Shown: positions 1,267-18,678 of the stretch, in pieces
How the letters are laid out: each line of letters opens with the position of its first letter
Numbering within the stretch: position 1 is the first letter of the stretch
Origin: Pseudorhodobacter sp. PARRP1
GTDB lineage: Bacteria > Pseudomonadota > Alphaproteobacteria > Rhodobacterales > Rhodobacteraceae
Reading direction: 5' to 3'
DNA length: 64,000 nt
NCBI GenBank assembly: GCA_002256245.1
Contig: NKIU01000008.1
Coordinates: 53,333-117,332, forward strand
Notes under the pieces: model-generated
Seen by the model: only the letters and a program-made list of their open reading frames with translations
Database searches by the model: none
Told to the model about the DNA's origin: nothing
Position numbers and translations under genes: made by a program

Positions 1267-2370
1267 ATGACGAATTTCAAAACCCTGACCTCGGGCGTCA
1301 GCCTGCTGGCGATGCTGGTGGCTGGTGCCGCACAGGCGCAATCGCTGGACGAGATCACCGCAGCGGCCAAGAAAGAGGGCGCGCTGACCACCATCGCGCT
1401 GCCGCATGACTGGTGCGGTTATGGTGCCGTGATCGAGGGCTTCAAGAAGAAATACCCCGAGATTGCCGTGAACGAGCTGAACCCGGATGGGTCGTCGGCA
1501 GATGAGCTGGAAGCCGTGCGCGCCAACAAGGGCAACACCGGCCCGCAAGCGCCCGACGTTCTGGACATCGGCCTGTCGTTTGGCCCGGCTGCCAAGGATG
1601 AAGGCCTGATCCAGCCGTATAAAGTCAGCACGTGGGACAGCATCCCGGCCGAGGCCAAGGATGCCGATGGCTTCTGGTATGGCGATTACTACGGTGTGAT
1701 GTCGTTCATCGTGAACACCGATATGGTCAAGAACGTGCCCGCCGATTGGGCCGATCTGATGAAGCCGGAATATGCGGGCGCGTTTGCGCTGTCGGGCGAT
1801 CCGCGTTCGGGCAACCAGCCGCTGATGTCGGTGATGGGCGCTGGCATGGCGATGGGTGGTGCGCCGGGGGCGGACTCGGCTGCCAAGGGGCTGGAGTTCT
1901 TTGCCGGGCTGAACAAGGCGGGCAATTTCGTTCCGGTCGCTGGCAAAACCGGCACCATCGCGCAGGGGGCTACCCCGATTGTTGCGGCTTGGGACTATAA
2001 CGCTTTGGCTTGGCGCGATACCCTTGCTGGCAACCCGAAGGCCGAGGTTATCGTGCCGGCTTCCGGCACCGTGGCGGGCGTTTATGTGCAGGCGATCAGC
2101 GCCTATGCCCCGCATCCGAACGCGGCAAAACTGTGGATGGAATACATCTATTCGGATGAAGGTCAGCTTGGCTGGTTGAACGGCTATTGCCACCCGATCC
2201 GTTTCAACGACCTCGCCAAGCGCGACGTGATCCCGGCAGAGATGCTGGCAAAACTGCCGCCTGCCGCTGCCTATGAAAAGGCCGTGTTCCCGACTCTGGA
2301 ACAGCAAGCCGCCCATAAAGAGGCTGTGACCGCGGGTTGGGATGCAACCGTCGGCGTCAAGGTCGAGTAA
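1267..2370 (+). CDS. ABC transporter substrate-binding protein (PotD/AfuA-like family)
   Basis: Signal peptide, AGGAG RBS, cluster-D SBP-like sequence; first gene of SBP-permease-permease-ATPase operon. Confidence 0.85.
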   Translation: MTNFKTLTSGVSLLAMLVAGAAQAQSLDEITAAAKKEGALTTIALPHDWCGYGAVIEGFKKKYPEIAVNELNPDGSSADELEAVRANKGNTGPQAPDVLDIGLSFGPAAKDEGLIQPYKVSTWDSIPAEAKDADGFWYGDYYGVMSFIVNTDMVKNVPADWADLMKPEYAGAFALSGDPRSGNQPLMSVMGAGMAMGGAPGADSAAKGLEFFAGLNKAGNFVPVAGKTGTIAQGATPIVAAWDYNALAWRDTLAGNPKAEVIVPASGTVAGVYVQAISAYAPHPNAAKLWMEYIYSDEGQLGWLNGYCHPIRFNDLAKRDVIPAEMLAKLPPAAAYEKAVFPTLEQQAAHKEAVTAGWDATVGVKVE

Positions 2371-2376
2371 ACCCCT

Positions 2377-2408
2377 AACCCTTCCCCGGCGCAGGCTGGG
2401 GAAGGGTT
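2377..2408 (+). terminator. Intra-operon stem-loop after SBP gene (attenuator or mRNA-stabilising hairpin)
   Basis: aacccttccccggc-gcag-gctggggaagggtt, 14-bp stem with one G-U pair. Confidence 0.6.
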
Positions 2409-2427
2409 TCCTTTCAGGATCATAGAC

Positions 2428-3294
2428 ATGAGAAGTTCCCGCCTTTGGCGTGCCCTGCCGTGGAACGGTTTGGGGGCAGTGCCGTTTTTGCTGTTCGCGC
2501 TGCTGTTTCTACTGCTGCCCACCGCGAACATCGTGGCGGGGGCGTTTGTGGACAGTGACGGCGGCTTCACGCTGAAAAACATTTTCAATCTTTTTACGCC
2601 CGAGATCATGAATGCGTTCTGGCTGTCGATCCGGCTCAGTTTCACCTCGGCGCTGATCGGGTGCATCTTGGGCTTCGCGATTGCCTTGGCGGTGGTTTTG
2701 GGCGGCTTGCCCGGCTGGATACGCGGCATCGTGATGACGTTTTCCGGGGTGACTTCGAATTTTGCCGGGGTGCCGTTGGCGTTTGCCTATGTGGCGACCT
2801 TGGGCCGGGTTGGCTTTGTGACGCTTCTGTTGCGCGATTGGTTTGGCGTCAATATCTACGCTTTGGGCTTCAATATGATCAGCTTCTGGGGGCTGGTCGC
2901 GGCCTATGTGTTCTTCCAGATCCCCTTGATGGTGCTGATCATCACCCCCGCGATTGACGGGCTGAAGCGCGAGTGGCGCGAGGCGGCGGAAGTGCTGGGT
3001 GCCACCGGCGGGCAGTATTGGCGCATGGTGGCGCTGCCGGTGCTGGGGCCGTCGCTGCTGGGGACGCTGGCGCTTTTGTTCGCCAATGCCTTTGGCGCGG
3101 TGGCGACCGCGATTGCGTTGACGGGGTCGCTGTTGTCCATCGCCCCGATCCTGCTGTTCAACCAAATCCGTGGCGACGTGCTGCAAGACCCGCATCTGGG
3201 CTATGCCTTGGCCTTCGCGATGATCGTGATTACGGGCATTTCCAACGGGGTTTATGTGGTGATGCGCACGCGCGCCGAGCGGTGGATCAAATGA
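2428..3294 (+). CDS. ABC transporter permease
   Basis: Multiple TM segments, EAA motif (EAAEVLGA). Confidence 0.9.
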   Translation: MRSSRLWRALPWNGLGAVPFLLFALLFLLLPTANIVAGAFVDSDGGFTLKNIFNLFTPEIMNAFWLSIRLSFTSALIGCILGFAIALAVVLGGLPGWIRGIVMTFSGVTSNFAGVPLAFAYVATLGRVGFVTLLLRDWFGVNIYALGFNMISFWGLVAAYVFFQIPLMVLIITPAIDGLKREWREAAEVLGATGGQYWRMVALPVLGPSLLGTLALLFANAFGAVATAIALTGSLLSIAPILLFNQIRGDVLQDPHLGYALAFAMIVITGISNGVYVVMRTRAERWIK

Positions 3295-4073
3295 AGCGTA
3301 TCCTGTCTTGGGCGACCATCGGCTTTGCGGTGGTGTATTTCTTCCTGCCGCTGGTGGGGATGCTGGAATTCTCGCTGAAGATGCGGCGGGGGGAGTATTC
3401 GTTGGACGCTTACCGCTCCGTGATGGGCGATCCGCAGTTTCAGGCCACCTTTGGGTATTCGGTGCTGATGGCCTGCCTGACCATCGTGTTCGGCGTGTTG
3501 GTGGTGGTGCCGACGGTGTTCTGGGTGCGCCTGAAACTGCCGCGCCTGCGCCCGTTCATGGAGTTTATCACGCTGCTGCCGCTGGTTATTCCGCCCATCG
3601 TGATCGTGTTCGGCTATATCCGTTTGTTCAACACCTCCAGTTGGTTGCCGCTGACGGGCTCGGCTTTGGGCACCGATTTTCTGCTGATGTGCGGCTATGC
3701 GGTGCTGGCGCTGCCCTATATGTATCGCGCCGTCGATACCGGCCTTGCGGCGATTGATTTGGCGACGCTTACCGAGGCTGCGCAAAGCCTTGGCGCGGGG
3801 TGGATCACCGTGCTTGCCCGCGTGATCTTGCCGAATGTGCTGGTTGCGGTGCTGTCCGGCGCTTTCCTGACCTTTGCCATCGTGATTGGCGAGTATGTCT
3901 TTGCGGCGCTGCTGGATCGGCCTGCGTTTGGCCCCTATCTGGTCTGGGCGGGCGGCAACAAAGCCTACGAGCCTGCGGCTTTGGCAGTGATGACCTTTGC
4001 GCTGACCTGGGCCTGCATGATGCTGATTCAATTGGCGACCAAATTCTCTAAACATACAAGGATGCCACGCTAA
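3291..4073 (+). CDS. ABC transporter permease
   Basis: ATGA overlap at 3291; EAAQSLGA motif; hydrophobic. Confidence 0.88.
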   Translation: MKRILSWATIGFAVVYFFLPLVGMLEFSLKMRRGEYSLDAYRSVMGDPQFQATFGYSVLMACLTIVFGVLVVVPTVFWVRLKLPRLRPFMEFITLLPLVIPPIVIVFGYIRLFNTSSWLPLTGSALGTDFLLMCGYAVLALPYMYRAVDTGLAAIDLATLTEAAQSLGAGWITVLARVILPNVLVAVLSGAFLTFAIVIGEYVFAALLDRPAFGPYLVWAGGNKAYEPAALAVMTFALTWACMMLIQLATKFSKHTRMPR

Positions 4074-5140
4074 TGGCGTATCTGGACCTTTCCGGCCTGC
4101 AAAAATCCTTTGGCGCGAACCAGGTGGTGAAGAGCTTTGATCTGGGGGTGGCGAAGGGCGAGTTTGTCTCGCTGCTGGGGCCTTCGGGCTGTGGCAAGAC
4201 CACGGTGCTGCGGATGGTGGCGGGGTTTGAGACGCCGACTGCGGGTGCGATCCGTATCGACGGGCAGGATGTGACGGGGCAGCGGCCCAATCAGCGCAAC
4301 ATCGGCATGGTGTTTCAGGCCTATGCGCTGTTTCCCAACCTGACGGTGGCGCAGAATGTGGGCTTTGGGCTGAAGATCGCCGGGGTTTCGGCCAAGGAAA
4401 CCGCTGATCGGGTGGCCGAAATGCTGGCGCTGATCGGCCTGCCCGAGATGGGCGCGCGCTATCCGTTTCAGCTTTCGGGCGGGCAGCAGCAAAGGGTGGC
4501 CTTGGCGCGCGCCCTTGCGCCGCGTCCGCGCGTGTTGTTGCTGGACGAACCGTTGTCGGCGCTGGATGCGAAAATCCGTGTCAGCTTGCGCAGCGAAATC
4601 CGCGATATTCAGCGCAAACTGGGCATCACCACGATCTTTGTGACGCATGATCAGGAAGAAGCCTTGTCGATGTCGGACCGGGTTGTGGTGATGAACGGGG
4701 GCCGCGCCGATCAGGTGGGCGCGCCGTTTGAGATTTATAACCACCCCGCGACGCGGTTTGTGGCGCAGTTTGTCGGCACGCTGAACACTTTGGACGCGGT
4801 GGTGACCAATGCCGCGCGGGGTGAGGTGACGGTGCAGGGCCAGCCGTTGCAACTGGGTCAGGCGATTGCTGCGGGGCAGGGGGCGACGGTGGGTCTGGCG
4901 CTGCGGCCCGAGGTTGTGCATCTGGAGGCGGATACTGCGCTGATCAGCCGGGGTGATTTTGCGCTGGCGGCGCGCATCGCCTCGGTCGATTTTCTGGGTG
5001 CGGTGATCCGGGTGAAGGCGCAGACGGCGGCGGGGGTGATCGCGCTGGATCTGTTCAACCGCCCCGACGCGCCGCCGCCACCCGTGGGTGCCGAGATGGC
5101 GCTGCGGTTCCGCGGGCAGGACGTGATTGTGCTGGGGTAG
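4073..5140 (+). CDS. ABC transporter ATP-binding protein (PotA-like)
   Basis: [38 protein letters not shown]-terminal TOBE-like region. Confidence 0.92.
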   Translation: MAYLDLSGLQKSFGANQVVKSFDLGVAKGEFVSLLGPSGCGKTTVLRMVAGFETPTAGAIRIDGQDVTGQRPNQRNIGMVFQAYALFPNLTVAQNVGFGLKIAGVSAKETADRVAEMLALIGLPEMGARYPFQLSGGQQQRVALARALAPRPRVLLLDEPLSALDAKIRVSLRSEIRDIQRKLGITTIFVTHDQEEALSMSDRVVVMNGGRADQVGAPFEIYNHPATRFVAQFVGTLNTLDAVVTNAARGEVTVQGQPLQLGQAIAAGQGATVGLALRPEVVHLEADTALISRGDFALAARIASVDFLGAVIRVKAQTAAGVIALDLFNRPDAPPPPVGAEMALRFRGQDVIVLG

Positions 5141-5376: not shown

Positions 5377-6441
5377 CTAAAACGCGCCGCGTGACAGCCA
5401 GCGGGCCAGCATCGGCCCCAGCAACAGCACCAGCAAGAACCGCGCCATATGCATCACCATCACAAACGCCACATCCACCGGGGTAGAAGCCGCGATGATG
5501 GCGATGGAATCCATGCCGCCGGGGCTGGTGGCCAGATAGGCCGTCAGCGGATCAACCCCGGCAAACTGCACCAGTGCCACAGCCGCCGCGCCGCAGACCG
5601 CGATCAGCACCAGAATTGACGCGAACACCCGCAGAAACGCCCGCCGCGCACCGCGGATTGTGGCGCGGGTAAAGCGCAATCCAATCGCCCAGCCGATGGC
5701 GGCATAGGTCAACGCCAGCAGCCAAGGCGGCAGATAAAGCGGCATCCACCCGGTGTGCGACAGCGCCATGCCGGTGAAGATCGGCAAAAGAAAGCTGCCT
5801 CCGGGCAGGCGCAGCCGCCCGCCTGCGAAGGCCAGCACCACCGCCAAAGCCACGGTTTGGGCGACGCCAAGCGCGGGCATGGCAGGAAACCAGATGATCT
5901 CGGGCGCAGGCCCCGCCGTCACGCCAAACAGCCGCGCAACGACAGTGGCCACCACCGCCACGCAGGCCACCCGCATATACTGCATGAAGGCCACCAGCCG
6001 CATATCCGCGCCATAAGCCCCCGACAGCAGCGTCATCGCGGCAGCAGCCCCGGGCGATGATCCCCAGATGGCGGTGGTGCCCGGCAGCGCGCCAGACCGC
6101 GCCAAAAGCCAGCCCAGCAGGGACGAGGCGAAGATGGTAAACAGCGTGCCTGCCACCACGATCGGCCAGTCTGCCGCCACCTCGGCCATCAGCGACAGCG
6201 GCAGCACCGAGGCCACCATCAGCCCGACCAGCCCCTGTGCGGCGGTCATCACAGGGGCAGGCAGGCTGACGCCATAGCCCTGCACCGCAAGGATAATCGC
6301 CGCGACCATCGGCCCGAGCAGCAAGGCGGCGGGCAGGTGCAGCAGCTCAAACCCGGCGGTGATCAGGGCCGACAGCAGCACCAGAACGCACCAGCGCAGC
6401 GCGCGGTTGGACGGGGATGGGGGCGGGGGCTGCGGTGACAA
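5377..6441 (-). CDS. AbrB-family (AidB regulator-type) duplicated membrane protein
   Basis: Two homologous hydrophobic halves with SSPGAAAAM and TSPGGMDSI motifs; TTG start at 6441 with AAGGA 6 nt upstream (ORF open to 6498). Confidence 0.8.
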   Translation of the reverse strand: MSPQPPPPSPSNRALRWCVLVLLSALITAGFELLHLPAALLLGPMVAAIILAVQGYGVSLPAPVMTAAQGLVGLMVASVLPLSLMAEVAADWPIVVAGTLFTIFASSLLGWLLARSGALPGTTAIWGSSPGAAAAMTLLSGAYGADMRLVAFMQYMRVACVAVVATVVARLFGVTAGPAPEIIWFPAMPALGVAQTVALAVVLAFAGGRLRLPGGSFLLPIFTGMALSHTGWMPLYLPPWLLALTYAAIGWAIGLRFTRATIRGARRAFLRVFASILVLIAVCGAAAVALVQFAGVDPLTAYLATSPGGMDSIAIIAASTPVDVAFVMVMHMARFLLVLLLGPMLARWLSRGAF

Positions 6442-6563
6442 GGTCTGTCCTTTGGGCAGGCGTTGCGCCTTCCTACGCCGCGCACTGGGCAAGGGCAATG
6501 CACTGGACAGCGCCCGCCCTGCCTGCCAGTTTGGCGAAAACCGCCCGCAGTCAAGGCCCTTCG

Positions 6564-6869
6564 ATGCAGCACACCGCCCCGCTTGATCCGGCAGCCGCGC
6601 ACAGCGAACGCTTTGCGATCTGCGGCGATGTGGGCGCTGCGGTCTTTGCGCCTTGGATCACGCGCCATGCGCGCCGTCTTGGCCTGCGCGGCGCGATTTT
6701 GCGCCATGATGCCACGCGGTTGGAGATGGTTGTCACCGGCCTGCCCGACCTGCTGGATGCGATGGCGCTGGCCTGTAGCCTTGGCCCACGCGAGGTGTTG
6801 GTGGACCGGATTGATCGCGCGCCGATGCCCTTGCAAAACGCGAACGAATTTGCTTCGACTGCCGCTTAA
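6564..6869 (+). CDS. Acylphosphatase-like small protein (degenerate active site)
   Basis: RFAICGDV...FAPWITRHARRLGLRG...LEMVVTG...MALACSLGP pattern follows the acylphosphatase fold, but VQGVGFR and the catalytic Asn are not conserved. Confidence 0.6.
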   Translation: MQHTAPLDPAAAHSERFAICGDVGAAVFAPWITRHARRLGLRGAILRHDATRLEMVVTGLPDLLDAMALACSLGPREVLVDRIDRAPMPLQNANEFASTAA

Positions 6870-6883
6870 CATATGATCATATG
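6870..6883. promoter_or_regulatory. Candidate repressor operator (perfect 14-bp palindrome)
   Basis: CATATGATCATATG, an AT-rich palindrome in GC-rich DNA, 117 bp upstream of the Rieske gene start. Confidence 0.55.
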
Positions 6884-6999
6884 CAGAAGGGGCGCTGATT
6901 TTTTGGGCATCTGCCGCGGTGCGGGCTGGGCTGCTTTGCAATAGCCCTTCCGCTATCGCAGCTTGGCATGACAAATCAGCGTCGGAATGTGGGGAAAAC

Positions 7000-7608
7000 A
7001 TGTCGATCTGGATTGCCAACGGTCTGTCGCAAGATTTGCCGCCGGGCGTTGTGATGGCCGGGGCTTGGCGGGGGGCCGAGCTTGCGATCTGGCGCAGCGC
7101 CTCGGGGCGGCTCTCGGCTTGGGGGGATCGCTGCCCGCATCGCGGAATGCGGCTGTCGCATGGGTTTGTGCGCGGTGAGACGCTGTCGTGCATCTATCAC
7201 GGTTGGGTTTATGGCAGCGACGGCGGTTGTCGGAAGATCCCCGCGCATCCGGCGATGGTGCCCCCTGCCACGATCAAGGCCGAGGTTTATCAATGCGTTG
7301 AGGCGGGTGGGGTGATCTGGGTCGCCCCTGCGGCTGTTGAAAGTGACGCGCCCGATCTGGCGGGGCTGACTCCGGTGCGCTCGGTCACTTTGCGCGCGGA
7401 TCGCGGCGCTTTGGCGCGGGTGCTGGCGGGGGCTGTGGCCGAGGGCGATCTGTGGCGGGTGCCTGCGCTGGGCGCGGTGCTGGCGCTGCAAGACCGGGCG
7501 GAAGGGCTTGGCCTGCACGCGCTTTGCCATGATGCTGCGCAGCGCGTGGCGGTCAGCCGCTGGTTGGACGGCGTGTTGCGGCTGGCGGAAGAGGGGGCTT
7601 TGGCATGA
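7000..7608 (+). CDS. Stand-alone Rieske [2Fe-2S] protein of a split Rieske oxygenase
   Basis: DRCPHRG and SCIYHGW give the complete Cys-x-His/Cys-x2-His ligand set; the roughly 90-aa C-terminus has no mononuclear-Fe motif and no reductase domain. Confidence 0.85.
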   Translation: MSIWIANGLSQDLPPGVVMAGAWRGAELAIWRSASGRLSAWGDRCPHRGMRLSHGFVRGETLSCIYHGWVYGSDGGCRKIPAHPAMVPPATIKAEVYQCVEAGGVIWVAPAAVESDAPDLAGLTPVRSVTLRADRGALARVLAGAVAEGDLWRVPALGAVLALQDRAEGLGLHALCHDAAQRVAVSRWLDGVLRLAEEGALA

Positions 7609-8447
7609 TTGCGGCGGCGGTGCTGAACGAATGGTATCCGGTGGCGATGGCGGCGATGGTCGGGCCGTGGCCGGGGCGGGCCACCACGCTTTTGGGCCAT
7701 GATATCAATGTGTTCTCGGAAGGCGACAAAATCATCGTGCGCGGCGCGGGCGGCGATCTGGCGGTGACGCTGGCCTATGGCCATGTCTGGGCCTGCCCCG
7801 GCACCCCGGCGCATGATCTGTTCCCGGTGCCAGAGGCCGCACAGCCGGGGCGGCGGCTGGTCGATTGCGGCGCGGTGCGGGTGAAATGCTCGCCGCTGCG
7901 GGCGGTCGAAAATTTCCTCGATATCGCGCATTTCCCGTTTGTGCATACCGACGTTTTGGGTGCTGAGCCGCACACCGAAGTGGGGCGATATGAGGTGCAA
8001 ATCCGCGAGGACAGCGACGAGGTTTGGGCGACCAAGGTGCATTTCTACCAACCCCAAGCCGCGAAATCGGCGGCGGGGGGGATTGTGACGGAATATATGT
8101 ATCGCGTCGCCGCCTCGACCTCGGCGGTGCTGTATAAAACCTGCCCGAACAACCCCGATGAATGGGACGTGATCGGGATTTTCGTGCAACCCCTGACCGA
8201 GGAGTTGTGCGAGGTCTGGCCGTGGATGGCGCTGTTCGATGACACCACGCCGCAGGCCGATCTGATCCAGTTTCAGCAGATGATCTTCCTGCAAGACCGC
8301 TCAATTCTGGAAAACCAGATCCCGCGGCTGTTGCCTTTGGACCCCGGCAAGGAGATTCCGACGCAGGCTGACCTCACATCAATCGCCTATCGCCGCTGGC
8401 TGAAACGCAAGGGGCTGACCTATGGCGCGCAGATGGTGGCGGCATGA
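7605..8447 (+). CDS. Rieske-less mononuclear-iron oxygenase subunit (VanA-type catalytic domain; NdmC-like N-demethylase)
   Basis: LNEWYPVA start and a vestigial Rieske region without Cys/His ligands; ENFLDIAHFPFVH (2-His motif plus bridging Asp), QDRSILENQ, YRRWL; 280 aa. Confidence 0.8.
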   Translation: MIAAAVLNEWYPVAMAAMVGPWPGRATTLLGHDINVFSEGDKIIVRGAGGDLAVTLAYGHVWACPGTPAHDLFPVPEAAQPGRRLVDCGAVRVKCSPLRAVENFLDIAHFPFVHTDVLGAEPHTEVGRYEVQIREDSDEVWATKVHFYQPQAAKSAAGGIVTEYMYRVAASTSAVLYKTCPNNPDEWDVIGIFVQPLTEELCEVWPWMALFDDTTPQADLIQFQQMIFLQDRSILENQIPRLLPLDPGKEIPTQADLTSIAYRRWLKRKGLTYGAQMVAA

Positions 8448-9100
8448 AACTGTATGATTATGTGCTAAGCGCCAGTTGCTACAAAATCCGCCTGATGGCG
8501 GCGCTGATGGGCGTCAAGCTGCAGACCGAGGCGGTGGATTTCCACCCCGGTCGCGCGCATCGCAGCGCGGATTTCCGCAGCCTGAACCCCGCCGGAACGC
8601 TGCCGGTGCTGGTGGACGGTGATCTGGTGCTGACCGAAAGCACGGCGATGCTGGTGTATCTGGCACGGCCCGAATGGCTGGGGCAGAGCGCGGCAGAAGC
8701 GGCGCAAGTCCAGCAATGGCTGGCATTTTCGGCACGGCTGGGGGCCAGTTTGGGCATGGCGCGGCTGCATGACATGCTGCTTTATCCCGGCGATATTGAT
8801 GCGTTCCGGCGCGCAGGCGTGGAGTGTCTGCGCGAGCTTGACGCGCATCTGACCGAGGCGCGCTTTGCGGGGCGCACCTATCTGGTGGGCGATACCCCCA
8901 CCATCGCCGACATCGCCTGTTTTCCCAACGTGGCACTTGCCCCCGATGGCGGCGTTGGCCTCGACGATTACCCGTCGATCCGCCTGTGGTCGCGCGCCAT
9001 CCGCGCCCTGCCGGGGTTCATCGAGATGCCCGGCATCCACCGCCTGCACGAGTTGAAACCCGCGCCCGAGGCCGTCCCACCGCTGGAGACGCTGCTATGA
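8444..9100 (+). CDS. Glutathione S-transferase family protein (NdmE-like by context)
   Basis: MKLYDYVLSASCYKIRL, GTLPVLVDG, LTESTAML, TIADIA motifs; ATGA-coupled on both sides. Confidence 0.85.
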   Translation: MKLYDYVLSASCYKIRLMAALMGVKLQTEAVDFHPGRAHRSADFRSLNPAGTLPVLVDGDLVLTESTAMLVYLARPEWLGQSAAEAAQVQQWLAFSARLGASLGMARLHDMLLYPGDIDAFRRAGVECLRELDAHLTEARFAGRTYLVGDTPTIADIACFPNVALAPDGGVGLDDYPSIRLWSRAIRALPGFIEMPGIHRLHELKPAPEAVPPLETLL

Positions 9101-10455
9101 GCATCCTTCTGAAAAACTGCGCGGCGATTGTGCCCTCGGCATCCGATCTGGTGCTGGCGGGGCAGGATATGCTGATCGAGGGCAAGCAGATTGCCGCCAT
9201 CGGCCCCAACCTGCACGCGCCGGGGGCCGAGGTGATCGACGCCTCTGGCTGGTTCATCTACCCCGGCTTGGTCAACACGCATCACCATTTCTTTCAATGC
9301 TTTGTGCGCAACCGCGCCGATCTGGATTGGACCAAAATGTCGGTGATCGAATGGCTGGACCTGATCTATCCGATCTTCTCACGCCTGACCGAGGATCAGT
9401 TTTACCACGCCTCTGTCGTGGCTCTGGCCGAGTTGATCAAACACGGCTGCACCACGGCGTTCGATCACCAATACAACTTTCCCCGCCACGCAGGCAGCCG
9501 CATCGTGGATCGCCAGTTTGAAGCCGCCGATCTGTTCGGCATCCGCTTTCATGCGGGCCGGGGCGGCAATACCCTGCCGAAATCCGAAGGCTCCACGATC
9601 CCCGATGAGATGCTGGAAACCACGGATGAATTCATCGCCGATTGCGCGCGGCTGATTGACGCCTACCACGATGCCAGCCCCTTCAGCATGCGGCAGGTGG
9701 TGGTCTCGCCCTGCCAGCCGGTGAATTGCTACAAGGATACCTTCGTGGAATCCGTGCGGCTGGCGCGTGACAAGGGCGTGTTCCTGCACACCCATGTCGG
9801 TGAGGGCGAAAGCCCGGTGATCGCGGCGCGCACCGGGCGCAGGACGGTGCAATACCTTGAGGAGATGGGATTTTCCGGCCCCGATACCTTCTATGCGCAT
9901 TGCTGGGAATTGAGCCATGCCGAACTGGCGCGCATGGCTGCGACCAACACAGGCGTGTCGCATTGCCCCGAGCCTGTGTATCTGGTGGGGGCCGAAGTCA
10001 CCGATATTCCAGCGATGCAGGCGATGGGCTTGCGGATTGGTCTGGGCTGCGATGGGGCTGCGTCGAATGACAATTCCAACCTGATGCACACCATCCATTC
10101 GGGTTACATGCTGCAATGTCTGGTCGCCAATACGCGCCAGCATCCCGTGCCGGAACCAAGCGCGTTCCTTGGCTATGCCACGCAGGGCGGCGCAGACCTT
10201 TTGGGCCGCCGCGACCTTGGCCGCCTTGCCCCCGGCATGGCGGCGGACCTGTTTGCCATCGACACCCGCCGTCTGGAATATGTCGGCACCCGGCACGATC
10301 CGGCCAGCCTGATCCCCAAGGTGGGCATCGGCCGCCCGGTTGATATGACGATGATCAACGGCCGTATCGTCTGGCGTGACGGCCAATTCCCCGGCCTTGA
10401 TGAGCGCGATCTGTTCACAAAAGCCGAAGCATCCTTCCACTGCATCCTGTCCTGA
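9097..10455 (+). CDS. Metal-dependent amidohydrolase, 8-oxoguanine/guanine-deaminase-like
   Basis: PGLVNTHHHFFQ, FHAGRG, HTHVGE, GLGCDG, PGMAAD motifs; ATG at 9097 overlaps the GST stop. Confidence 0.85.
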   Translation: MSILLKNCAAIVPSASDLVLAGQDMLIEGKQIAAIGPNLHAPGAEVIDASGWFIYPGLVNTHHHFFQCFVRNRADLDWTKMSVIEWLDLIYPIFSRLTEDQFYHASVVALAELIKHGCTTAFDHQYNFPRHAGSRIVDRQFEAADLFGIRFHAGRGGNTLPKSEGSTIPDEMLETTDEFIADCARLIDAYHDASPFSMRQVVVSPCQPVNCYKDTFVESVRLARDKGVFLHTHVGEGESPVIAARTGRRTVQYLEEMGFSGPDTFYAHCWELSHAELARMAATNTGVSHCPEPVYLVGAEVTDIPAMQAMGLRIGLGCDGAASNDNSNLMHTIHSGYMLQCLVANTRQHPVPEPSAFLGYATQGGADLLGRRDLGRLAPGMAADLFAIDTRRLEYVGTRHDPASLIPKVGIGRPVDMTMINGRIVWRDGQFPGLDERDLFTKAEASFHCILS

Positions 10456-10479
10456 TCCCACAATCCCAAAGGAAACCCG

Positions 10480-11571
10480 ATGACCCAAACCCGCCGCTCT
10501 TTCCTGAAAACCTCGCTTGCCGCCAGCACCGCCTTGGCTTTGCCGCTGCCCGCCTTTGCCGAAGGCGAAGTGCTGAATGTGGCCCTGATCGTGCCCTCGC
10601 CCGCAGCCGACGTCGGCTGGTCGCACACGCTGGAACTTGGCACCAAGGCGTTGGAGGCCGAATATGGTGACAAGGTCAAGGTCACGCTGCTGGAGAATAT
10701 CGCCGAAGGCCCGGATGCCGACCGGATTATGAACAAGACCGTGGCCGACGGGAACACCTTCCTGATCCTCGGCTCGTTTGGCTATATGAACGGCGGGTTG
10801 AAACTGGCCAAGGCGCATCCGGAAGTGTCGATCCTGCATGCCTCGGGCTATCAGGTGGCCCCGAATTTCTCGCCGTTTGGCGCGCGCTATTATCAGGGCA
10901 CTTACCTGATGGGGATGGCCGCGGCGTCCTTGTCAAAGTCGAAGAAACTCGGCTGCGTGGGGGCCTTTGCGATCCCCGAACTGATCACCTCGATCAACGC
11001 CTTCACCTTGGGGGCGCAATCGGTGGACCCAAGCATTGAGGTGTCGGTGGTCTGGGTGAACTCTTGGTTCGATCCGGCGTCGGAACAAGAGGCCGCCAAG
11101 GCGCTGCTGGCGCAGGGCTGCGATGTGGTGTTCTCGAACGCGCAGGACACGCCTTCGGTGGTGGCGGCGTGTGAAGAGGCCGGGGCCTATGTGTTCAACC
11201 TGAACTCGTCGATGAAAACCTATGCGCCGAAGAAATATCTGGGCGTGGTGGGCACCGACTGGGCGCCGTATTTCAAGGCATCCGTCGCCGCACATCTGGC
11301 GGGCACCTTTGCCGGGGCAAGCGCGTGGCTGGGCATGGCCGACAACTGCGTGTTTGTCGCCGACTGGAACCCCGATATTGCCCCCGATATGGTGGCGAAG
11401 ATCGAGGCCGTTCACGCCACCCTGATGGACGGCAGCTTCAGCCCGTTCACTGGGCCTTTGACCAACCAAGACGGGGCCGAGGCTGTCGCTGCGGGTGTCA
11501 CCTTGGGCGATGACGCGATCCTGTCGATGGATTGGCATGTCAAGGGCGTGACCACGCCGCTGCCGAAGTAA
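10480..11571 (+). CDS. BMP-family (purine/nucleoside) ABC substrate-binding protein
   Basis: Twin-arginine leader TRRSFLK; DVGWSH, SFGYM, VWVNSWFDP motifs of the BMP/PnrA family. Confidence 0.88.
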   Translation: MTQTRRSFLKTSLAASTALALPLPAFAEGEVLNVALIVPSPAADVGWSHTLELGTKALEAEYGDKVKVTLLENIAEGPDADRIMNKTVADGNTFLILGSFGYMNGGLKLAKAHPEVSILHASGYQVAPNFSPFGARYYQGTYLMGMAAASLSKSKKLGCVGAFAIPELITSINAFTLGAQSVDPSIEVSVVWVNSWFDPASEQEAAKALLAQGCDVVFSNAQDTPSVVAACEEAGAYVFNLNSSMKTYAPKKYLGVVGTDWAPYFKASVAAHLAGTFAGASAWLGMADNCVFVADWNPDIAPDMVAKIEAVHATLMDGSFSPFTGPLTNQDGAEAVAAGVTLGDDAILSMDWHVKGVTTPLPK

Positions 11572-11575
11572 ACCC

Positions 11576-13066
11576 ATGGCCGCGCTGTTGTCTTTGCAAG
11601 CTGTGTCAAAGCGTTACGGCGCGGTGCAGGCCAATGCCGGGATCGACCTTGTGGTTGATCCCGGCTCGATCCATGCCATTCTGGGCGAAAATGGCGCGGG
11701 CAAATCCACGCTGATGAAGCTGATCTATGGCGTGGAATCCCCCGATGCCGGGGTGATGCTGTGGAAGGGCCAGCCGGTGAACCTTGCCAGCCCAGCCGAG
11801 GCGCGGGCGCATGGCATCGGCATGGTGTTTCAGCATTTCTCGCTGTTTGAAACGCTAAGCGTGGTGCAGAACATCGCGCTGATCGTGCCGGGCAAGCAGG
11901 CAGACCTCGCCCGCCGCATCCGGGCCTTGGGCGCGGAATTTGGCCTTGAGGTTGACCCCGAGGCGATGGTGCACGCGCTGTCGGTGGGAGAGCGGCAACG
12001 GGTGGAAATCATCCGTTGCCTGCTGCTGAACCCCGAACTGCTTATTCTGGACGAGCCGACATCAGTGCTGCCGCCGCAAAGCGTGGCGCGGTTGTTTGAG
12101 ACACTCAGGGCCTTGCAGGCGCGCGGCATGGCGATCTTGTTCATCAGCCATAAACTGGAAGAAATCAAAGAGTTATGCGACACCGCCACCATCCTGCGGG
12201 GTGGCCGCGTATCGGGCCGTGTCGATCCGCGCGGCCATTCGGCCAAGGATCTGGCAACGCTGATGATCGGCCGCGCCATGCCGCCGCCGTTGCCTGCAAC
12301 CGCGCAGGACCCGGGCGAGGCGTGGCTGGAACTGGCGGGGCTCAGCTATCGCAACGATGATCCGTTTGGCGTCTCGCTGCATGATCTGTCGCTACAGGCG
12401 CGCAGCGGCGAGATCGTTGGCATCGCGGGCATTTCCGGCAATGGCCAGCAGGAGTTGGCGGCGCTGATCTCGGGTGAAATCGCAGCGCAGGGCGCGGGGT
12501 TGCGGATGATGGGGCAGGGCGTGGGGCGTCTGGGCGTCGCCGCGCGCCGCCGTCTGGGCTTTGCCTTTGTGCCGGAAGAACGTTTGGGCCGCGGCGCTGT
12601 GCCGGAAATGTCTTTGGCCGACAACGCCTTGCTGACCGCCCATCGCGCGGGGCTGGTGGCGCGCGGCTTTATCCGTCGCGCGCCCGAGCGGGCCTTCACC
12701 GCCGCCATTATCACCCGCTATGACGTGCGCACGCCGGGGCCAGAGGCCGAGGCGGCGGCGCTGTCGGGCGGCAATCTGCAAAAGTTCATCATGGGGCGCG
12801 AAATGATGCTGGACCCCAAACTGTTGTTGGTGTCGCAGCCGACATGGGGCGTGGATATTGGGGCGGCCACCGAAATCCGCCAGCGCCTGATCGCGATGCG
12901 CAATGCGGGCGCGGCCATTCTGGTGATTTCCGAGGAGTTGGAGGAGTTGTTCCAGATCTGCGACCGCCTGCATGTGCTGCACAAGGGCCATCTGTCGCCG
13001 TCCCTGCCTGTGGCCGAGACCAATGCCGAGGCCGTGGGGGCCTATATGATCGGAAGTGCGGCATGA
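11576..13066 (+). CDS. Nucleoside-type ABC ATP-binding protein (two ABC domains)
   Basis: GENGAGKST, LSVGERQRVEI, second domain with LSGGNLQK and QPTWGVD. Confidence 0.92.
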   Translation: MAALLSLQAVSKRYGAVQANAGIDLVVDPGSIHAILGENGAGKSTLMKLIYGVESPDAGVMLWKGQPVNLASPAEARAHGIGMVFQHFSLFETLSVVQNIALIVPGKQADLARRIRALGAEFGLEVDPEAMVHALSVGERQRVEIIRCLLLNPELLILDEPTSVLPPQSVARLFETLRALQARGMAILFISHKLEEIKELCDTATILRGGRVSGRVDPRGHSAKDLATLMIGRAMPPPLPATAQDPGEAWLELAGLSYRNDDPFGVSLHDLSLQARSGEIVGIAGISGNGQQELAALISGEIAAQGAGLRMMGQGVGRLGVAARRRLGFAFVPEERLGRGAVPEMSLADNALLTAHRAGLVARGFIRRAPERAFTAAIITRYDVRTPGPEAEAAALSGGNLQKFIMGREMMLDPKLLLVSQPTWGVDIGAATEIRQRLIAMRNAGAAILVISEELEELFQICDRLHVLHKGHLSPSLPVAETNAEAVGAYMIGSAA

Positions 13067-14133
13067 GGATCAGCTTTGTCCGCCGGGATCACGCCTCGCG
13101 CCCCGCCATGCTGCTGGCCCCGGTGGTGGCCTTTGCCTGCGCGATTGTGGCGAGCGTGATCCTGTTCACCGCCTTGGGCAAAGCCCCCGGCCAAGCCTTG
13201 TATTCGCTGCTGCTGGAGCCGTTTCTGACGTGGTATAACTTTTCCGAAGTCTTGCTGAAAATGGCCCCGCTGCTGCTGATTGCCCAAGGGCTTGCCATCG
13301 GTTTTCGCGCCAATGTGTTCAACATCGGGGCCGAGGGGCAGTTGATTATCGGAGCCATCGCGGCTTCGGCTTTACCGGTCTGGTATCCGCAGGGCGACAG
13401 CGCTTTGATGCTGCCTGCGATGCTGGTGATGGGGGCAGGGGCGGGGATGGCTTGGGCCGCGATTGCCGCCATGTTCCGCACAAGGTTCAATGCCAATGAG
13501 ATTCTGGTGACGCTGATGCTGTCGCTGATCGCCGCGCAAGTGCTGAACTATCTGCTGCTGGGCCCGTGGAAAGACCCGCATGGCTTCAACTTTCCGCAAA
13601 GCGTGATGTTTCCCGATGCCGCCCTGCTGCCGATCCTGCTGCCGGGCACGCGGGTGAATATCTCGCTTTTGTTCGCGCTGGTGGCAAGCGTGTTGGCCTA
13701 TGTGCTGATGCGCCACCGCTTTGCCGGGTTTCAACTGCTGGTGGGTGGGCTTGCCCCCCGCGCGGCTCGCTATGCCGGTTTCAGTGAGGCCCGTGCCATT
13801 TGGCTAAGCCTGCTTTTGGGTGGGCTTGCGGCAGGGCTGGCGGGGGCTGCGGAGGTGGCGGGGCCGCTGGGGCAGTTGCAACGCTCGGTTTCCCTTGGCT
13901 ACGGCTATTCCGCGATCATTGTGGCTTACTTGGGCGGGTTGAACCCTTTGGGCATTGTGGTGTCGGCCTTTGTGATGTCGGTGATTTATATCGGCGGCGA
14001 CAATGCGATGGTGTCGGCGGATTTGCCGGTGGCCGCCGTCTGGGTGTTTCAGGGCCTGCTGCTGTGCTTTTACCTCGCCGGCCTGACCTTCATCCGTCAC
14101 CGTGTCAGCTTTAGTCGCAAGGCCCTGCCATGA
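13063..14133 (+). CDS. Nucleoside-type ABC permease
   Basis: FNIGAEGQ, NEILVTLML, GYGYSAIIVA motifs; ATGA overlap. Confidence 0.9.
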   Translation: MRISFVRRDHASRPAMLLAPVVAFACAIVASVILFTALGKAPGQALYSLLLEPFLTWYNFSEVLLKMAPLLLIAQGLAIGFRANVFNIGAEGQLIIGAIAASALPVWYPQGDSALMLPAMLVMGAGAGMAWAAIAAMFRTRFNANEILVTLMLSLIAAQVLNYLLLGPWKDPHGFNFPQSVMFPDAALLPILLPGTRVNISLLFALVASVLAYVLMRHRFAGFQLLVGGLAPRAARYAGFSEARAIWLSLLLGGLAAGLAGAAEVAGPLGQLQRSVSLGYGYSAIIVAYLGGLNPLGIVVSAFVMSVIYIGGDNAMVSADLPVAAVWVFQGLLLCFYLAGLTFIRHRVSFSRKALP

Positions 14134-15041
14134 ACGCTGTTGATTTCATTCTGGCGGGTATGCTGGCCGCCGCCACGCCGATGTTGCTGGCGGCCTTGGG
14201 CGAGATGGTGGTGGAGCGATCCGGCGTGTTGAACCTTGGGCTGGAGGGGATGATGGCCCTGGGTGCGGCTTTGGGGTTTATCACCACCTACAGCACGGGC
14301 AGCCATGCCTTGGGCTTTGTGGTGGCGGCGTTGGGCGGGGCGGCGCTGTCGCTGCTGTTTGCGCTGATCGTGCTGGGGTTTGTCGCCAATCAGGTGGCGG
14401 CGGGGCTGGCGATCGGGATTTTGGGCACCGGGCTGTCGTCGCTGTTTGGCAAGAATTTTGAAAGCCTGACGATTGACGGTTTGCCGAAGCTGGCGCTGCC
14501 GGGGCTGTCTGATCTGCCGGTGGTGGGGGTGTTGTTTGTGCAGGATGCGGTGGTCTGGGCCACCGCTGTGCTGGCGCTGGCGATCTGGGCGGTGATGACC
14601 CATTCGAAACTTGGCCTGATCATCCGCGCGGTGGGCGAGAACCCGCATGCGGCCCGCGCAATTGGCTTTGGGGTGCTGCGGGTGCGCTGCGGCGCGATTG
14701 CGTTTGGCGGCGCGCTTGCGGGCATCGCCGGGGCTTATGCGTCAACGGTTTACACGCCGCTGTGGGCCGATGGCATGATCGCCGGGCGCGGCTGGATCGC
14801 GCTGGCGCTGGTGGTGTTTGGCACCTGGATGACGGGCCGGGTGGTGTTTGGCGCGGTGCTGTTTGGTGCGTTGTCGCTGGGCGAGTTGACCACGCAAGCG
14901 GCGGGGGTGAACATCCCCTCGCAACTGTTGGCTTGCGTGCCCTATGTCGTGACGATTTTGATGCTGGCGGTGATTTCCTCGAACCGCAGGCGGATGCGGC
15001 TGAACACGATTGCCTCACTCGGCCAGCCGTTCGAGCGTTGA
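14130..15041 (+). CDS. Nucleoside-type ABC permease
   Basis: ERSGVLNLGLEGMM, RAVGENP, GRGWIALALV motifs. Confidence 0.9.
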   Translation: MNAVDFILAGMLAAATPMLLAALGEMVVERSGVLNLGLEGMMALGAALGFITTYSTGSHALGFVVAALGGAALSLLFALIVLGFVANQVAAGLAIGILGTGLSSLFGKNFESLTIDGLPKLALPGLSDLPVVGVLFVQDAVVWATAVLALAIWAVMTHSKLGLIIRAVGENPHAARAIGFGVLRVRCGAIAFGGALAGIAGAYASTVYTPLWADGMIAGRGWIALALVVFGTWMTGRVVFGAVLFGALSLGELTTQAAGVNIPSQLLACVPYVVTILMLAVISSNRRRMRLNTIASLGQPFER

Positions 15042-15170: not shown

Positions 15171-15818
15171 CTATTCGAAGGGTTCGTAGTGCGGGTTCGC
15201 TGTGGGCGGGGCTTTGGCCGCTTGGCGGGCGAGGATTTCGACAAAGCTGCGTCCGGTCTTGATCTCGGCGTGCAGCACCACTTGGGCTGCGGCGCGGGCA
15301 TCTTCTCCGGCGTCATGGTGGTGGAACTGCAGCGACAGCGCGGTTTTCAGATGGCCCAAACCGTGGCCGCCACGGCCCTTGAACTCGGGCCAGGCGCGGC
15401 GGGCGATGGTGACGCTATCGACCCAGTGCAGGCTGGGCACATCGAGGCCATGCCAGCCGCAAGCCGCCGCCACCGCGCGTTCGTCAAAGCGCGAGTGTTG
15501 CACCATGGGTTGCTGCGCCATCAGGGGCGCAAGGGCTGCGATCACTTCGGGAAACAGCGGGGCGTCGCGCACCATCGCCGCGTCAATGCCATGCAGTTGG
15601 GTGTTGAAGGGCGAGAACGCCTCTGCGGGGTTTACCAGCAGGCTGAAGTTGTCGATCTGCCCCCAGTCATCGACGCAGGCAAAGCCCATCTGGCAGATGC
15701 TATGCGCGTTGCGGTTGGCGGTTTCGACATCAAAAGCGATGAAGCGATAGGGCGGGCGCAGGCGTTCTGGCAGCAGCGGGTGGGGCAGCAGCGGGTGGGG
15801 CGGCAGCACGGGCGTCAA
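15171..15818 (-). CDS. DEDDh 3'-5' exonuclease (DnaQ/epsilon-like)
   Basis: FDVET, HSRFD, DSVTIAR, HHDAGEDA motifs; TTG start overlaps the uraH stop. Confidence 0.82.
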   Translation of the reverse strand: MTPVLPPHPLLPHPLLPERLRPPYRFIAFDVETANRNAHSICQMGFACVDDWGQIDNFSLLVNPAEAFSPFNTQLHGIDAAMVRDAPLFPEVIAALAPLMAQQPMVQHSRFDERAVAAACGWHGLDVPSLHWVDSVTIARRAWPEFKGRGGHGLGHLKTALSLQFHHHDAGEDARAAAQVVLHAEIKTGRSFVEILARQAAKAPPTANPHYEPFE

Positions 15819-16168
15819 CTGCCGCGATAGGTCGAATAGGCGAAGGGCGAGATCAGCAGCGGCACATGGTAATGTGCCTCGGCATCCGCCACGCCGAAGC
15901 GGATCGGGATTTCATCCAGAAACAGCACCTCGGCACTGGTCTGACCCGTGCTGCGCAGGTAGTTGCCCGCGCAAAACACCAGCTCATAGCTGCCCGCCGT
16001 CAGCGCCTTGCCTTCCAGCATGGGCGCATCGGTGCGGCCATCGGCGTTGGTCACGGTCTCGGCAATCTTCTTGTGGCTGTTGCCGCCGACCCGGTAGAGC
16101 ATGATCTTCACCCCCGCCGCAGGCTTGCCGCGCGCCGTATCCAGCACATGCGTTGTCAACTTGCCCAT
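15815..16168 (-). CDS. uraH: 5-hydroxyisourate hydrolase (transthyretin-like)
   Basis: LTTHVLDT, TNADGR, HYHVPLL and C-terminal YRGS signature. Confidence 0.95.
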   Translation of the reverse strand: MGKLTTHVLDTARGKPAAGVKIMLYRVGGNSHKKIAETVTNADGRTDAPMLEGKALTAGSYELVFCAGNYLRSTGQTSAEVLFLDEIPIRFGVADAEAHYHVPLLISPFAYSTYRGS

Positions 16169-16323
16169 CATCGCCCCCGTTTTCTGCCGCGCGTATTTCT
16201 GCCAACCTAGCCAAACTTGCCCCTTGCCGCAGCCCCTGCCAAGCCGCAAAACTCCTTTCGGGATTATTTGATAAAACCTTTAGGATCTTCGATATAGTTT
16301 CGCCGAAGAAGAAGGAGAGTTTG

Positions 16324-17739
16324 ATGCCCCGCTACCCCCGTGATTTCCGTGGCTACGGCCCCGATGCCCCTGATGCGGCCTGGCCGGGCGGTGCCAAGAT
16401 CGCGGTGTCGGTGGTGTTGAACTACGAAGAGGGCGGCGAGAACAACATCCTGCACGGCGATGGCAGCTCGGAAGCGTTTTTGTCCGATATTGCAGGGGCT
16501 GCGCCTTGGCCCGGTCAGCGCCATTGGAACATGGAATCGATCTACGATTACGGCGCGCGCGCGGGCTTCTGGCGGTTGCACCGGCTGTTCACCGGCATGG
16601 AGATTCCGGTGACGATCTACGGTGTGTCCACCGCTTTGGCGCGCAACCCCGAGCAGGTGGCCGCGATGAAGGCCGCCGGGTGGGAGATCGCGTCGCACGG
16701 GCTGAAATGGGTCGATCACCGCGACATGCCCCTTGCAGAGGAGCGTGCCCAGATCGCAGAATCCATCCGCCTGCACACCGAAGTCGTAGGCACACCCCCG
16801 CGCGGCTGGTACACCGGGCGCTGCTCGGTCAATACCGTCGATCTGACCGCCGAGACCGGGCAATTCGACTGGATTTCCGACACTTACGACGACGATCTGC
16901 CCTATTGGCGCGAGGTCGGCGCGCGTGATCAGTTGGTGATCCCCTACACGCTGGAAGCCAACGACATGCGCTTTGCCACAGCGCCGGGTTACATCGAGGG
17001 CCAGCAGTTCTTCCAATACCTGAAAGACAGCTTTGACACCCTTTATGCCGAGGGCTGCGAGGGCCGCGCGAAGATGTTCTCGATCGGTCTGCACTGCCGC
17101 CTGATCGGACGCCCGGGCAAAATCGCAGGGCTCAAGCGCTTCCTCGACTATGCAAAATCCCACAATGACGTGTGGTTCCCCCGCCGGATCGAGATCGCCG
17201 AACATTGGGCAAAAACCCATCCGCACAAACGCTTCGCACGGCCTTCTCAGATGACACGCGAAGCTTTCGTTGCGGCTTATGGTCCCATTTTCGAACATTC
17301 ACCCTGGATCGCCGACCGCGCCTTCGATCTGGAACTTGGCCCCGCCCATGACAGCGCCACAGGCCTGCACAACGCGCTCGCCCGTATCTTCCGCTCAGCC
17401 AGCCCCGCAGAACGCTTGGGCGTGCTGCAAGCCCACCCCGATCTTGCCGGCAAACTCGCCGCCGCCAAACAACTGACCGCGGCATCCAGTGCCGAGCAGG
17501 CCAGCGCAGCCCTCGATGCGCTGAGCGATGCCGAGCGTGCCGCGTTCCAAAGCCTGAACGCGGCTTATGTCGCCAAACACGGGTTCCCCTTCATCATCGC
17601 CGTGCGCGATAACACCAAGGCCAGCATCCTTGCGGCTTTTCACGCCCGCATCGCGCATGACACCGAAACCGAACTGCAAACCGCCTGCATGCAGGTCGAA
17701 CGTATCGCCGAACTCCGCCTGAAGGACATCCTGCCATGA
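16324..17739 (+). CDS. puuE: Allantoinase PuuE fused to C-terminal OHCU decarboxylase (UraD)
   Basis: LNYEEGGE, ESIYDYGARAGFWR, SHGLKW, SIGLHCRLIGRPG followed by FEHSPWIA, AHPDLAG, SSAEQ, FPFIIAV, ERIAELRL; AAGGAG RBS. Confidence 0.92.
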   Translation: MPRYPRDFRGYGPDAPDAAWPGGAKIAVSVVLNYEEGGENNILHGDGSSEAFLSDIAGAAPWPGQRHWNMESIYDYGARAGFWRLHRLFTGMEIPVTIYGVSTALARNPEQVAAMKAAGWEIASHGLKWVDHRDMPLAEERAQIAESIRLHTEVVGTPPRGWYTGRCSVNTVDLTAETGQFDWISDTYDDDLPYWREVGARDQLVIPYTLEANDMRFATAPGYIEGQQFFQYLKDSFDTLYAEGCEGRAKMFSIGLHCRLIGRPGKIAGLKRFLDYAKSHNDVWFPRRIEIAEHWAKTHPHKRFARPSQMTREAFVAAYGPIFEHSPWIADRAFDLELGPAHDSATGLHNALARIFRSASPAERLGVLQAHPDLAGKLAAAKQLTAASSAEQASAALDALSDAERAAFQSLNAAYVAKHGFPFIIAVRDNTKASILAAFHARIAHDTETELQTACMQVERIAELRLKDILP

Positions 17740-18578: not shown

Positions 18579-18599
18579 AGCAAATTTGACTAAAATTTG

Positions 18600-18654
18600 T
18601 TTCATCCGTTTCTAAATATCCCACGGGGAGCGCGAGGGGTGTGAAACCCCTCGC
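18600..18654 (+). repeat. TCATC-N8-9-AAATATCC dispersed repeat, copy b
   Basis: tttcatccgtttctaaatatcccacggggagcgcgagggg-tgtgaaa-cccctcgc, ending in a GC hairpin. Confidence 0.7.
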
Positions 18655-18678
18655 TTCGCCGCAAGCCCAAGGCGCACC

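Follow-up and report, generated by a model that had tools for sequence, protein, structure and literature searches.

A probable methylated-guanine operon in Pseudorhodobacter with an unfused NdmCDE-type oxygenase and an NdmH ortholog: a reading from sequence and context

The window analyzed here is a 64,000-nucleotide stretch of contig NKIU01000008.1 of Pseudorhodobacter sp. PARRP1 (assembly GCA_002256245.1). On its forward strand, at 6564-15041, it encodes a Rieske oxygenase split over two proteins (P0001 and P0002), a protein with the fold of a glutathione S-transferase (GST; P0003), an ortholog of NdmH (P0004), and an importer of the ATP-binding cassette (ABC) type. On balance, we favor reading this region as an operon for the uptake and breakdown of methylated guanine bases by an unfused oxygenase of the NdmCDE type together with NdmH. 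NdmCDE of Pseudomonas putida CBB5 removes the N7-methyl group of 7-methylxanthine in a GST-dependent manner (Summers et al. 2013, as summarized in PMC4408171). For the present operon, the neighboring genes favor methylated guanines derived from RNA turnover over methylxanthines. The main argument for a guanine derivative as the substrate of the oxygenase is the steady pairing of P0001, P0002, and P0003 (hereafter the trio) with guanine-specific hydrolases and a purine-base importer.

The Rieske-bearing and catalytic subunits

The three coupled genes with ATGA junctions are placed exactly as in the preliminary description of this DNA, which had been made from the letters alone (Table 1). The first gene product, P0001, carries the four cluster ligands in motifs of the CPH and CIYH type, in agreement with that description, and matches the Pfam Rieske family (PF00355) with 68.6 bits. 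The ligands C45, H47, C64, and H67 are invariant in an alignment of 28 homologs, and R127, R193, and E197 in the tail of the protein are nearly invariant. In the AlphaFold model (pLDDT 95.9), a small sheet and a long C-terminal helix (residues 124-201) come after the Rieske domain, and the model in its entirety can be superposed on the full chains of SxtT and GxtA (TM 0.74-0.76, about 265 columns). The best sequence matches are oxygenase alpha subunits (E 1e-26), whereas Rieske ferredoxins are found only at E 6e-6. The Rieske domain thus has a polypeptide of its own, as had been proposed, but it is not a bare domain, since it is accompanied by the confidently modeled C-terminal domain (residues 120-202) and the superposition covers the whole chain. 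According to the model, P0001 is a complete oxygenase paralog whose catalytic domain is stunted, which makes it a mirror image of P0002.

P0002 matches the Pfam family VanA_C (PF19112, 72.3 bits) and shows neither a match to PF00355 nor a CxH...CxxH motif. In alignments of 30-41 homologs, H114, D231, and the bridging residue D106 are invariant, and H109 is present in at least 90% of the rows. A catalytic iron site behind a Rieske-like N-terminus devoid of its ligands had been noted before and is found here as well; moreover, the stretch from the first strand to the catalytic domain is about 55 residues shorter in P0002 than in SxtT. Its AlphaFold model (pLDDT 92.4) superposes on the whole SxtT chain with a TM of 0.86, which suggests that the scaffold of the Rieske domain is kept and its cluster-binding part gone. 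From the two models, we read P0001 and P0002 as two alpha-subunit paralogs that have decayed reciprocally.

The solved structures nearest to both proteins, by sequence and by predicted fold, are those of SxtT and GxtA (6wn3 and 6wnc), Rieske hydroxylases of saxitoxin biosynthesis, and NdmA is a weaker match. Unlike the proteins studied here, SxtT and GxtA hold both metal sites on one polypeptide, hydroxylate carbon, and have no GST partner.

Relation of the trio to NdmCDE

All three proteins have a counterpart in NdmCDE. P0002 is 43% identical to CBB5 NdmC over 275 amino acids (E 8e-79), P0001 is 36% identical to residues 6-115 of NdmD (E 2e-25), and P0003 is 44% identical to NdmE (E 4e-61). 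The NdmC reference was the CBB5 protein of UniRef entry M1EY73 (P0284), retrieved in a homolog search with the protein of plasmid pKF715A. NdmD and NdmE were taken from a Pseudomonas caffeine cluster (L006) that carries NdmA, NdmB, NdmC, NdmD, NdmE, and frm genes; its NdmC shares 87% identity with the CBB5 protein. The NdmD-like protein of pKF715A likewise aligns with P0001 by its N-terminal part, over 182 amino acids. Judged by this homology, the trio is a genuine but unfused relative of NdmCDE, and NdmD would be a P0001-type Rieske module fused to a reductase.

A search of plasmids with P0002 (tblastn) gave three tiers of relatives: orthologs in Rhizobium with 66-71% identity, proteins of Sinorhizobium meliloti pSymA, Klebsiella pneumoniae, and P. 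putida pKF715A with 42-44% identity, and HpxD with 29.6% identity. In a maximum-likelihood tree built from 97 sequences, P0002 falls, together with NdmC, inside a clade of 52 Rieske-less proteins (support 99), and complete oxygenases of the SxtT type, HpxD, and NdmA/B lie outside it. The tree accordingly joins P0002 to NdmC and not to NdmA/B, HpxD, or the O-demethylases; a grouping with VanA or other O-demethylases was the outcome that the preliminary description had named as contrary to its proposal. Within the Rieske-less clade, the P0002 clade (17 rows, support 98) is distinct from the NdmC clade (26 rows, support 98), which also includes the Klebsiella, pKF715A, and S. meliloti proteins. 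This well supported separation makes P0002 a member of the NdmC family and not an ortholog of NdmC. The earlier proposal of an NdmCDE-like three-part system therefore stands as far as homology is concerned, but its catalytic subunit cannot be equated with NdmC.

The third gene had been called a GST, and P0003 indeed matches both the N- and the C-terminal GST domains. The hallmarks of a glutathione site, S9, C12, Y13, R16, cis-Pro54, and E65-S66, are kept in most of 62 orthologs, whereas NdmE has D-A in place of E65-S66. P0003 may bind glutathione or, as has been proposed for NdmE, play a purely structural role.

The likeness to NdmCDE thus consists of a catalytic subunit lacking the Rieske cluster, a cluster supplied by another polypeptide, an adjacent third subunit of GST fold, and a purine-related context. 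Four differences are apparent. The Rieske domain is a free protein of 202 residues in the trio, whereas in NdmCDE it forms the N-terminus of a reductase of 588 residues; the trio has no linked reductase; P0002 belongs to a clade apart from NdmC; and the partners of the trio are NdmH and an ABC importer of the BMP type, in contrast to NdmA, NdmB, and frmAB in the case of NdmCDE.

Homologs of ndmCDE without assigned function have been reported on Klebsiella pneumoniae plasmids, P. putida pKF715A, and S. meliloti pSymA (PMC4408171). Like the present operon, these clusters encode an NdmC-like protein, a GST, and neighbors of purine type (BMP binding proteins, nucleobase permeases, HpxO). They differ in having kept the fused NdmD-type Rieske-reductase and in having no NdmH alongside. 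The gene order in Klebsiella and pKF715A is NdmC-like protein, Rieske-reductase of 585 amino acids, and GST, and the S. meliloti cluster differs from the trio in its two catalytic paralogs. In the latter cluster (L003, 9968-13570), these two NdmC-like paralogs stand in tandem and share one NdmD-like Rieske-reductase, with a divergent GntR regulator and a BMP-type ABC system beside them.

In one Rhizobiaceae locus (L088, 4829-7897), a second, paralogous cluster stands beside the main trio and consists of four genes, for an oxygenase, a Rieske protein, a GST, and an NdmD-type reductase. This cluster is intermediate between the unfused and the NdmD-fused layouts, indicating that fused and unfused layouts both occur naturally.

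The NdmH ortholog and the purine-base importer

AtzB homologs of Pleomorphomonas oryzae, a Rhodobacteraceae bacterium, and Haliea (poNdmH, rbNdmH, and hsNdmH) hydrolyze N2,N2-dimethylguanine to xanthine and dimethylamine, with kcat/KM values of 1e5-1e6 per M per s and with no activity on the nucleoside (Drexler et al., ACS Catal. 2026, PMC13054789). That paper mentions neither Rieske proteins nor operons and lists the genomic context among its plans. P0004 is 78.6% identical to rbNdmH, 74.5% to poNdmH, 55.6% to hsNdmH, and 57.4% to AtzB; the NdmH reference sequences were machine-read from the PDF supplement of the paper, with the loss of one poNdmH residue. P0004 shows the CQNN signature of NdmH together with its full set of catalytic and substrate-flanking residues, and the 13 residues probed (Q67, W78, W86, Y91, Y126, N158, C206, Q207, N210, E236, H268, P293, and D319) are all kept. 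Its score for the NCBIfam 8-oxoguanine deaminase family is below the cut-off (370 vs 532 bits). The slot after the GST gene is occupied by a gene 90.7% identical to poNdmH in a Pleomorphomonas locus (L017) and by one 92.7% identical to rbNdmH in another locus (L022). Taken together, P0004 is identified by sequence as an NdmH ortholog, predicted to convert N2,N2-dimethylguanine into xanthine and dimethylamine. Its gene overlaps that of the GST by ATGA at 9097-9100 and is thus coupled to it in the same way as the genes of the trio are to one another.

The binding protein encoded next has AtzT (6pi5, E 1e-81) and 3s99 as its best solved relatives, and AtzT has been crystallized with guanine bound (PMC6834077). 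The region 9097-11571 hence encodes, side by side, the closest natural relatives of two proteins of the atrazine pathway, P0004 being related to AtzB and the binding protein to AtzT. This arrangement suggests that atzB and atzT may have been recruited from one operon of this type.

Conservation across genomes

A scan of species-representative genomes gave 80 loci that bear the trio, with 53-94% identity, and the neighboring genes at these loci were called by tblastn with defined queries. Nearly all are from Alphaproteobacteria, the closest being a Cypionkella, and the carriers include Rhizobium, Mesorhizobium, Paracoccus, roseobacters, and many other genera. The operon is widespread in marine, freshwater, and soil alphaproteobacteria that have no known link to caffeine plants. 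The standalone Rieske gene, the oxygenase, and the GST are found together at all 80 loci, and the BMP-type ABC system at nearly all. An NdmH ortholog (at least 55% identity) adjoins the trio at 51 loci. Another 13 have a canonical guanine deaminase near the trio (TIGR02967, 433 bits against a cut-off of 375) and in no case a close NdmH ortholog. A distant NdmH-like gene (35-38% identity) occurs at four loci, one of which has the canonical guanine deaminase too, while the remaining 13, some of them on truncated contigs, have neither NdmH nor guanine deaminase. An NdmD-type reductase lies within 10 kb of the trio at a single locus.

Layout of the operon

The nine genes at 6564-15041 most likely form one operon (Table 1). 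ATGA stop/start overlaps are found at 7605-7608, 8444-8447, 9097-9100, and 13063-13066, with a probable one at 14130.

Table 1. Genes of the proposed methylated-guanine operon, with positions in the window.
Gene product	Position	Strand	Features
Degenerate acylphosphatase-like small protein	6564..6869	+	Open reading frame open from 6417; ATG at 6564 is the probable start
P0001, Rieske-bearing subunit, 202 aa	7000..7608	+	Intact [2Fe-2S] site; vestigial catalytic domain (model); homolog of the NdmD N-terminal module
P0002, catalytic subunit, 280 aa	7605..8447	+	NdmC-like; intact 2-His-1-Asp iron site; vestigial cluster-less Rieske domain (model)
P0003, NdmE-like GST-fold subunit, 218 aa	8444..9100	+	GST N- and C-terminal domains (Pfam)
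P0004, NdmH ortholog, 452 aa	9097..10455	+	Identity to characterized NdmH enzymes
BMP-family periplasmic binding protein, purine-base type	10480..11571	+	PF02608; twin-arginine translocation (TAT) signal
ABC transporter ATPase, two ABC domains	11576..13066	+	PF00005, two stretches
ABC permease 1	13063..14133	+	PF02653
ABC permease 2	14130..15041	+	PF02653

The small protein that opens the series matches PF00708 (29.9 bits), but its phosphate-binding motif is degenerate, with FA instead of the FR of acylphosphatases; a homologous small open reading frame precedes the Rieske gene in most loci of the main clade. A gene for an AbrB-family membrane protein (PF05145; 5377-6498, reverse strand) is divergent from the operon, and its 5' end overlaps the long upstream frame of the acylphosphatase-like gene, which supports the later start of the latter. 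A scan of 6300-7100 for promoters and terminators found nothing. The sole RNA run of the source sample is a small polyA library, and none of the sampled words occur in it.

Ureide-pathway genes follow 1-4 kb downstream of the operon (16153-19167) and encode a 528-residue fusion of a PuuE-type polysaccharide deacetylase with an OHCU decarboxylase, a bicupin similar to ureidoglycine aminohydrolase, and a ureidoglycolate lyase. Between them and the operon, on the opposite strand, lies an RNase T-family exonuclease gene (15171-15818). Another ABC importer, encoded further upstream at 1267-5140, consists of an SBP_bac_6 binding protein, two permeases, and a TOBE-domain ATPase; no link between it and the operon was seen.

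Reductase and purine genes elsewhere in the genome

On other contigs, the genome encodes XdhB (1200.8 bits) and guanine deaminase (503.5 bits), both of canonical type, which means that the operon is not needed for ordinary guanine. For the same reason, a role of the trio as a substitute for xanthine dehydrogenase or guanine deaminase, similar to that of HpxDE, was rejected as the main explanation. NdmA and NdmB had been found missing from the window, and neither is present in the whole genome.

A dedicated reductase was sought in the genome and none was found, and P0001 ends at residue 202 with no fusion to an FNR or ferredoxin domain. The best matches in the genome to the C-terminus of NdmD are a DmmB-like gene on contig C10 and a GbcB-like gene on contig C24, of which the DmmB-like reductase matches best and the GbcB-like gene adjoins a Rieske oxygenase. 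The DmmB-like gene is part of a cluster at about 373,000-377,000 of C10 (L008, 7153-11033, reverse strand), in which genes similar to a heme-dependent N-demethylase, DmmB, DmmA, and GcvT stand by an amino-acid permease gene. By sequence similarity this cluster looks like a dimethylamine monooxygenase system and, if it is one, it could consume the dimethylamine released by NdmH.

Proposed function and alternatives

The trio most likely acts on a methylguanine or methylxanthine and takes a methyl group off a ring nitrogen, with N7 as the best guess. N7 is favored on two grounds only: the sole characterized member of the family demethylates N7, and no ring-methylated guanine is commoner than 7-methylguanine. 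In the mechanism that we propose, the ABC importer with its guanine-type binding protein would bring methylated guanine bases into the cell, where P0001, P0002, and P0003 would form a hetero-oligomer. The cluster of P0001 would feed the iron of P0002 across the subunit interface via the conserved Asp106, with electrons coming from an unlinked NAD(P)H reductase. The oxygenase would then hydroxylate the ring N-methyl group of 7-methylguanine, or of 7-methylxanthine derived from it, and the methyl would leave as formaldehyde. The resulting guanine or xanthine would be passed on to xanthine dehydrogenase and the ureide pathway, whose genes the genome also carries. Such a division of labor, in which NdmH would cover the exocyclic and the oxygenase the ring methylations, would suit guanines from eukaryotic RNA, for example that of an algal host; the source sample is an algal metagenome.

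Several observations weigh against this reading. P0002 shares no more than 43% identity with NdmC and stands in a sister clade, so that its regiospecificity, and even its reaction type, may differ from those of NdmC; the solved structures nearest to it, those of SxtT and GxtA, belong to C-hydroxylases. The operon has no reductase, and one within 10 kb is the exception among the 80 loci. Several loci that look complete have neither NdmH nor guanine deaminase. NdmH alone takes its known substrate to xanthine, and the oxygenase consequently needs a second substrate. Deamination of 7-methylguanine by NdmH is not reported in the accessible literature.

Two alternatives keep the methylated purine as substrate and change the reaction. 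The trio might oxidatively demethylate the exocyclic N2-methyl groups of N2-methylguanine and N2,N2-dimethylguanine to give guanine, which a deaminase would convert into xanthine, in parallel to the NdmH route or as its older version. Guanine as the product fits the 13 loci where the trio and the ABC importer are paired with a canonical guanine deaminase of narrow scope instead of NdmH, and N2,N2-dimethylguanine is the sole native substrate shown for this operon type. Nevertheless, we regard this activity as improbable, given that it would be redundant at the 51 NdmH loci, where NdmH handles N2,N2-dimethylguanine at the high efficiency given above, and that NdmC, the only characterized relative, removes a ring N-methyl. 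The trio might also be a hydroxylase of a purine-ring carbon, similar to HpxD or SxtT, acting for example at C8 of methylated guanines or xanthines that are no substrates of xanthine dehydrogenase. That its closest solved structures are hydroxylases would agree with such a role, as would the detectable relationship to HpxD at 29.6% identity. HpxD belongs to HpxDE, the molybdenum-independent xanthine hydroxylase of Klebsiella, which resembles the trio as a Rieske-type oxygenase, distantly related, that acts on a purine. However, HpxD has an intact Rieske domain and lies outside the Rieske-less clade, whereas P0002 lacks the Rieske ligands, shows much higher identity to NdmC than to HpxD, and clusters with NdmC in that clade; the genome, in addition, has a normal xanthine dehydrogenase. 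The chances of a carbon hydroxylation are, in our view, low.

The two other alternatives change the substrate. The homology to NdmCDE could mean that the trio serves the degradation of plant methylxanthines (caffeine-type alkaloids) as in CBB5, acting on imported 7-methylxanthine with no connection to RNA methylguanines. The absence of NdmA and NdmB from the genome, the coupling of the operon to a guanine-specific hydrolase and a guanine-type binding protein, the wide marine, freshwater, and soil occurrence away from any known caffeine plant, and the origin of the sample from an algal metagenome all speak against it, and we consider it very unlikely. A non-purine amino-N-heterocycle (a pterin, an s-triazine, or a methylated pyrimidine) is hardly more credible as the substrate, with the purine context then reflecting mere family resemblance. 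Enzymes of the NdmH cluster are promiscuous, and the triazine-acting AtzB and AtzT are close relatives of two operon proteins; the atrazine enzymes are nevertheless recent offshoots, NdmH natively acts on a guanine, variant operons have guanine deaminase in place of NdmH, and ureide-pathway genes adjoin the operon.

Breakdown of methylated guanines, with ring demethylation by the trio, thus remains the reading that we prefer. A further-reaching version of it is tentative and, as a whole, rather doubtful: P0001 and P0002, with their reciprocal decay, and a glutathione-binding GST would form an obligate hetero-oligomeric demethylase of ring-methylated guanine, probably 7-methylguanine; together with NdmH, this enzyme would support a widespread alphaproteobacterial recycling of the methylguanines of eukaryotic RNA; and operons of this type would be the source of atzB and atzT.

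Novelty and significance

NdmCDE and its uncharacterized homologs have been known since 2013 and NdmH since 2026. Searches of the literature returned no link of NdmH to a Rieske/GST oxygenase, nothing on 7-methylguanine or dimethylguanine in connection with Rieske enzymes or demethylases, and no pathway for the breakdown of 7-methylguanine or other ring-methylated guanines. Three features are absent from the literature searched: the unfused layout, in which a decayed alpha paralog carries the cluster; the fixed coupling of the trio to a purine importer and to either NdmH or guanine deaminase; and the absence of a linked reductase.

Ring-methylated guanines are released wherever RNA turns over, and the operon is a candidate route for them, in which the recently described NdmH also finds a physiological context. 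The operon bears, in addition, on the assembly of the atrazine pathway. The trio is a natural example for studies of how Rieske oxygenases cope with a split of their two metal centers, and its unfused layout is possibly ancestral. It shows the design of NdmCDE, with cluster and iron on separate proteins plus a GST, to be that of a broad natural family and not a peculiarity of caffeine degraders.

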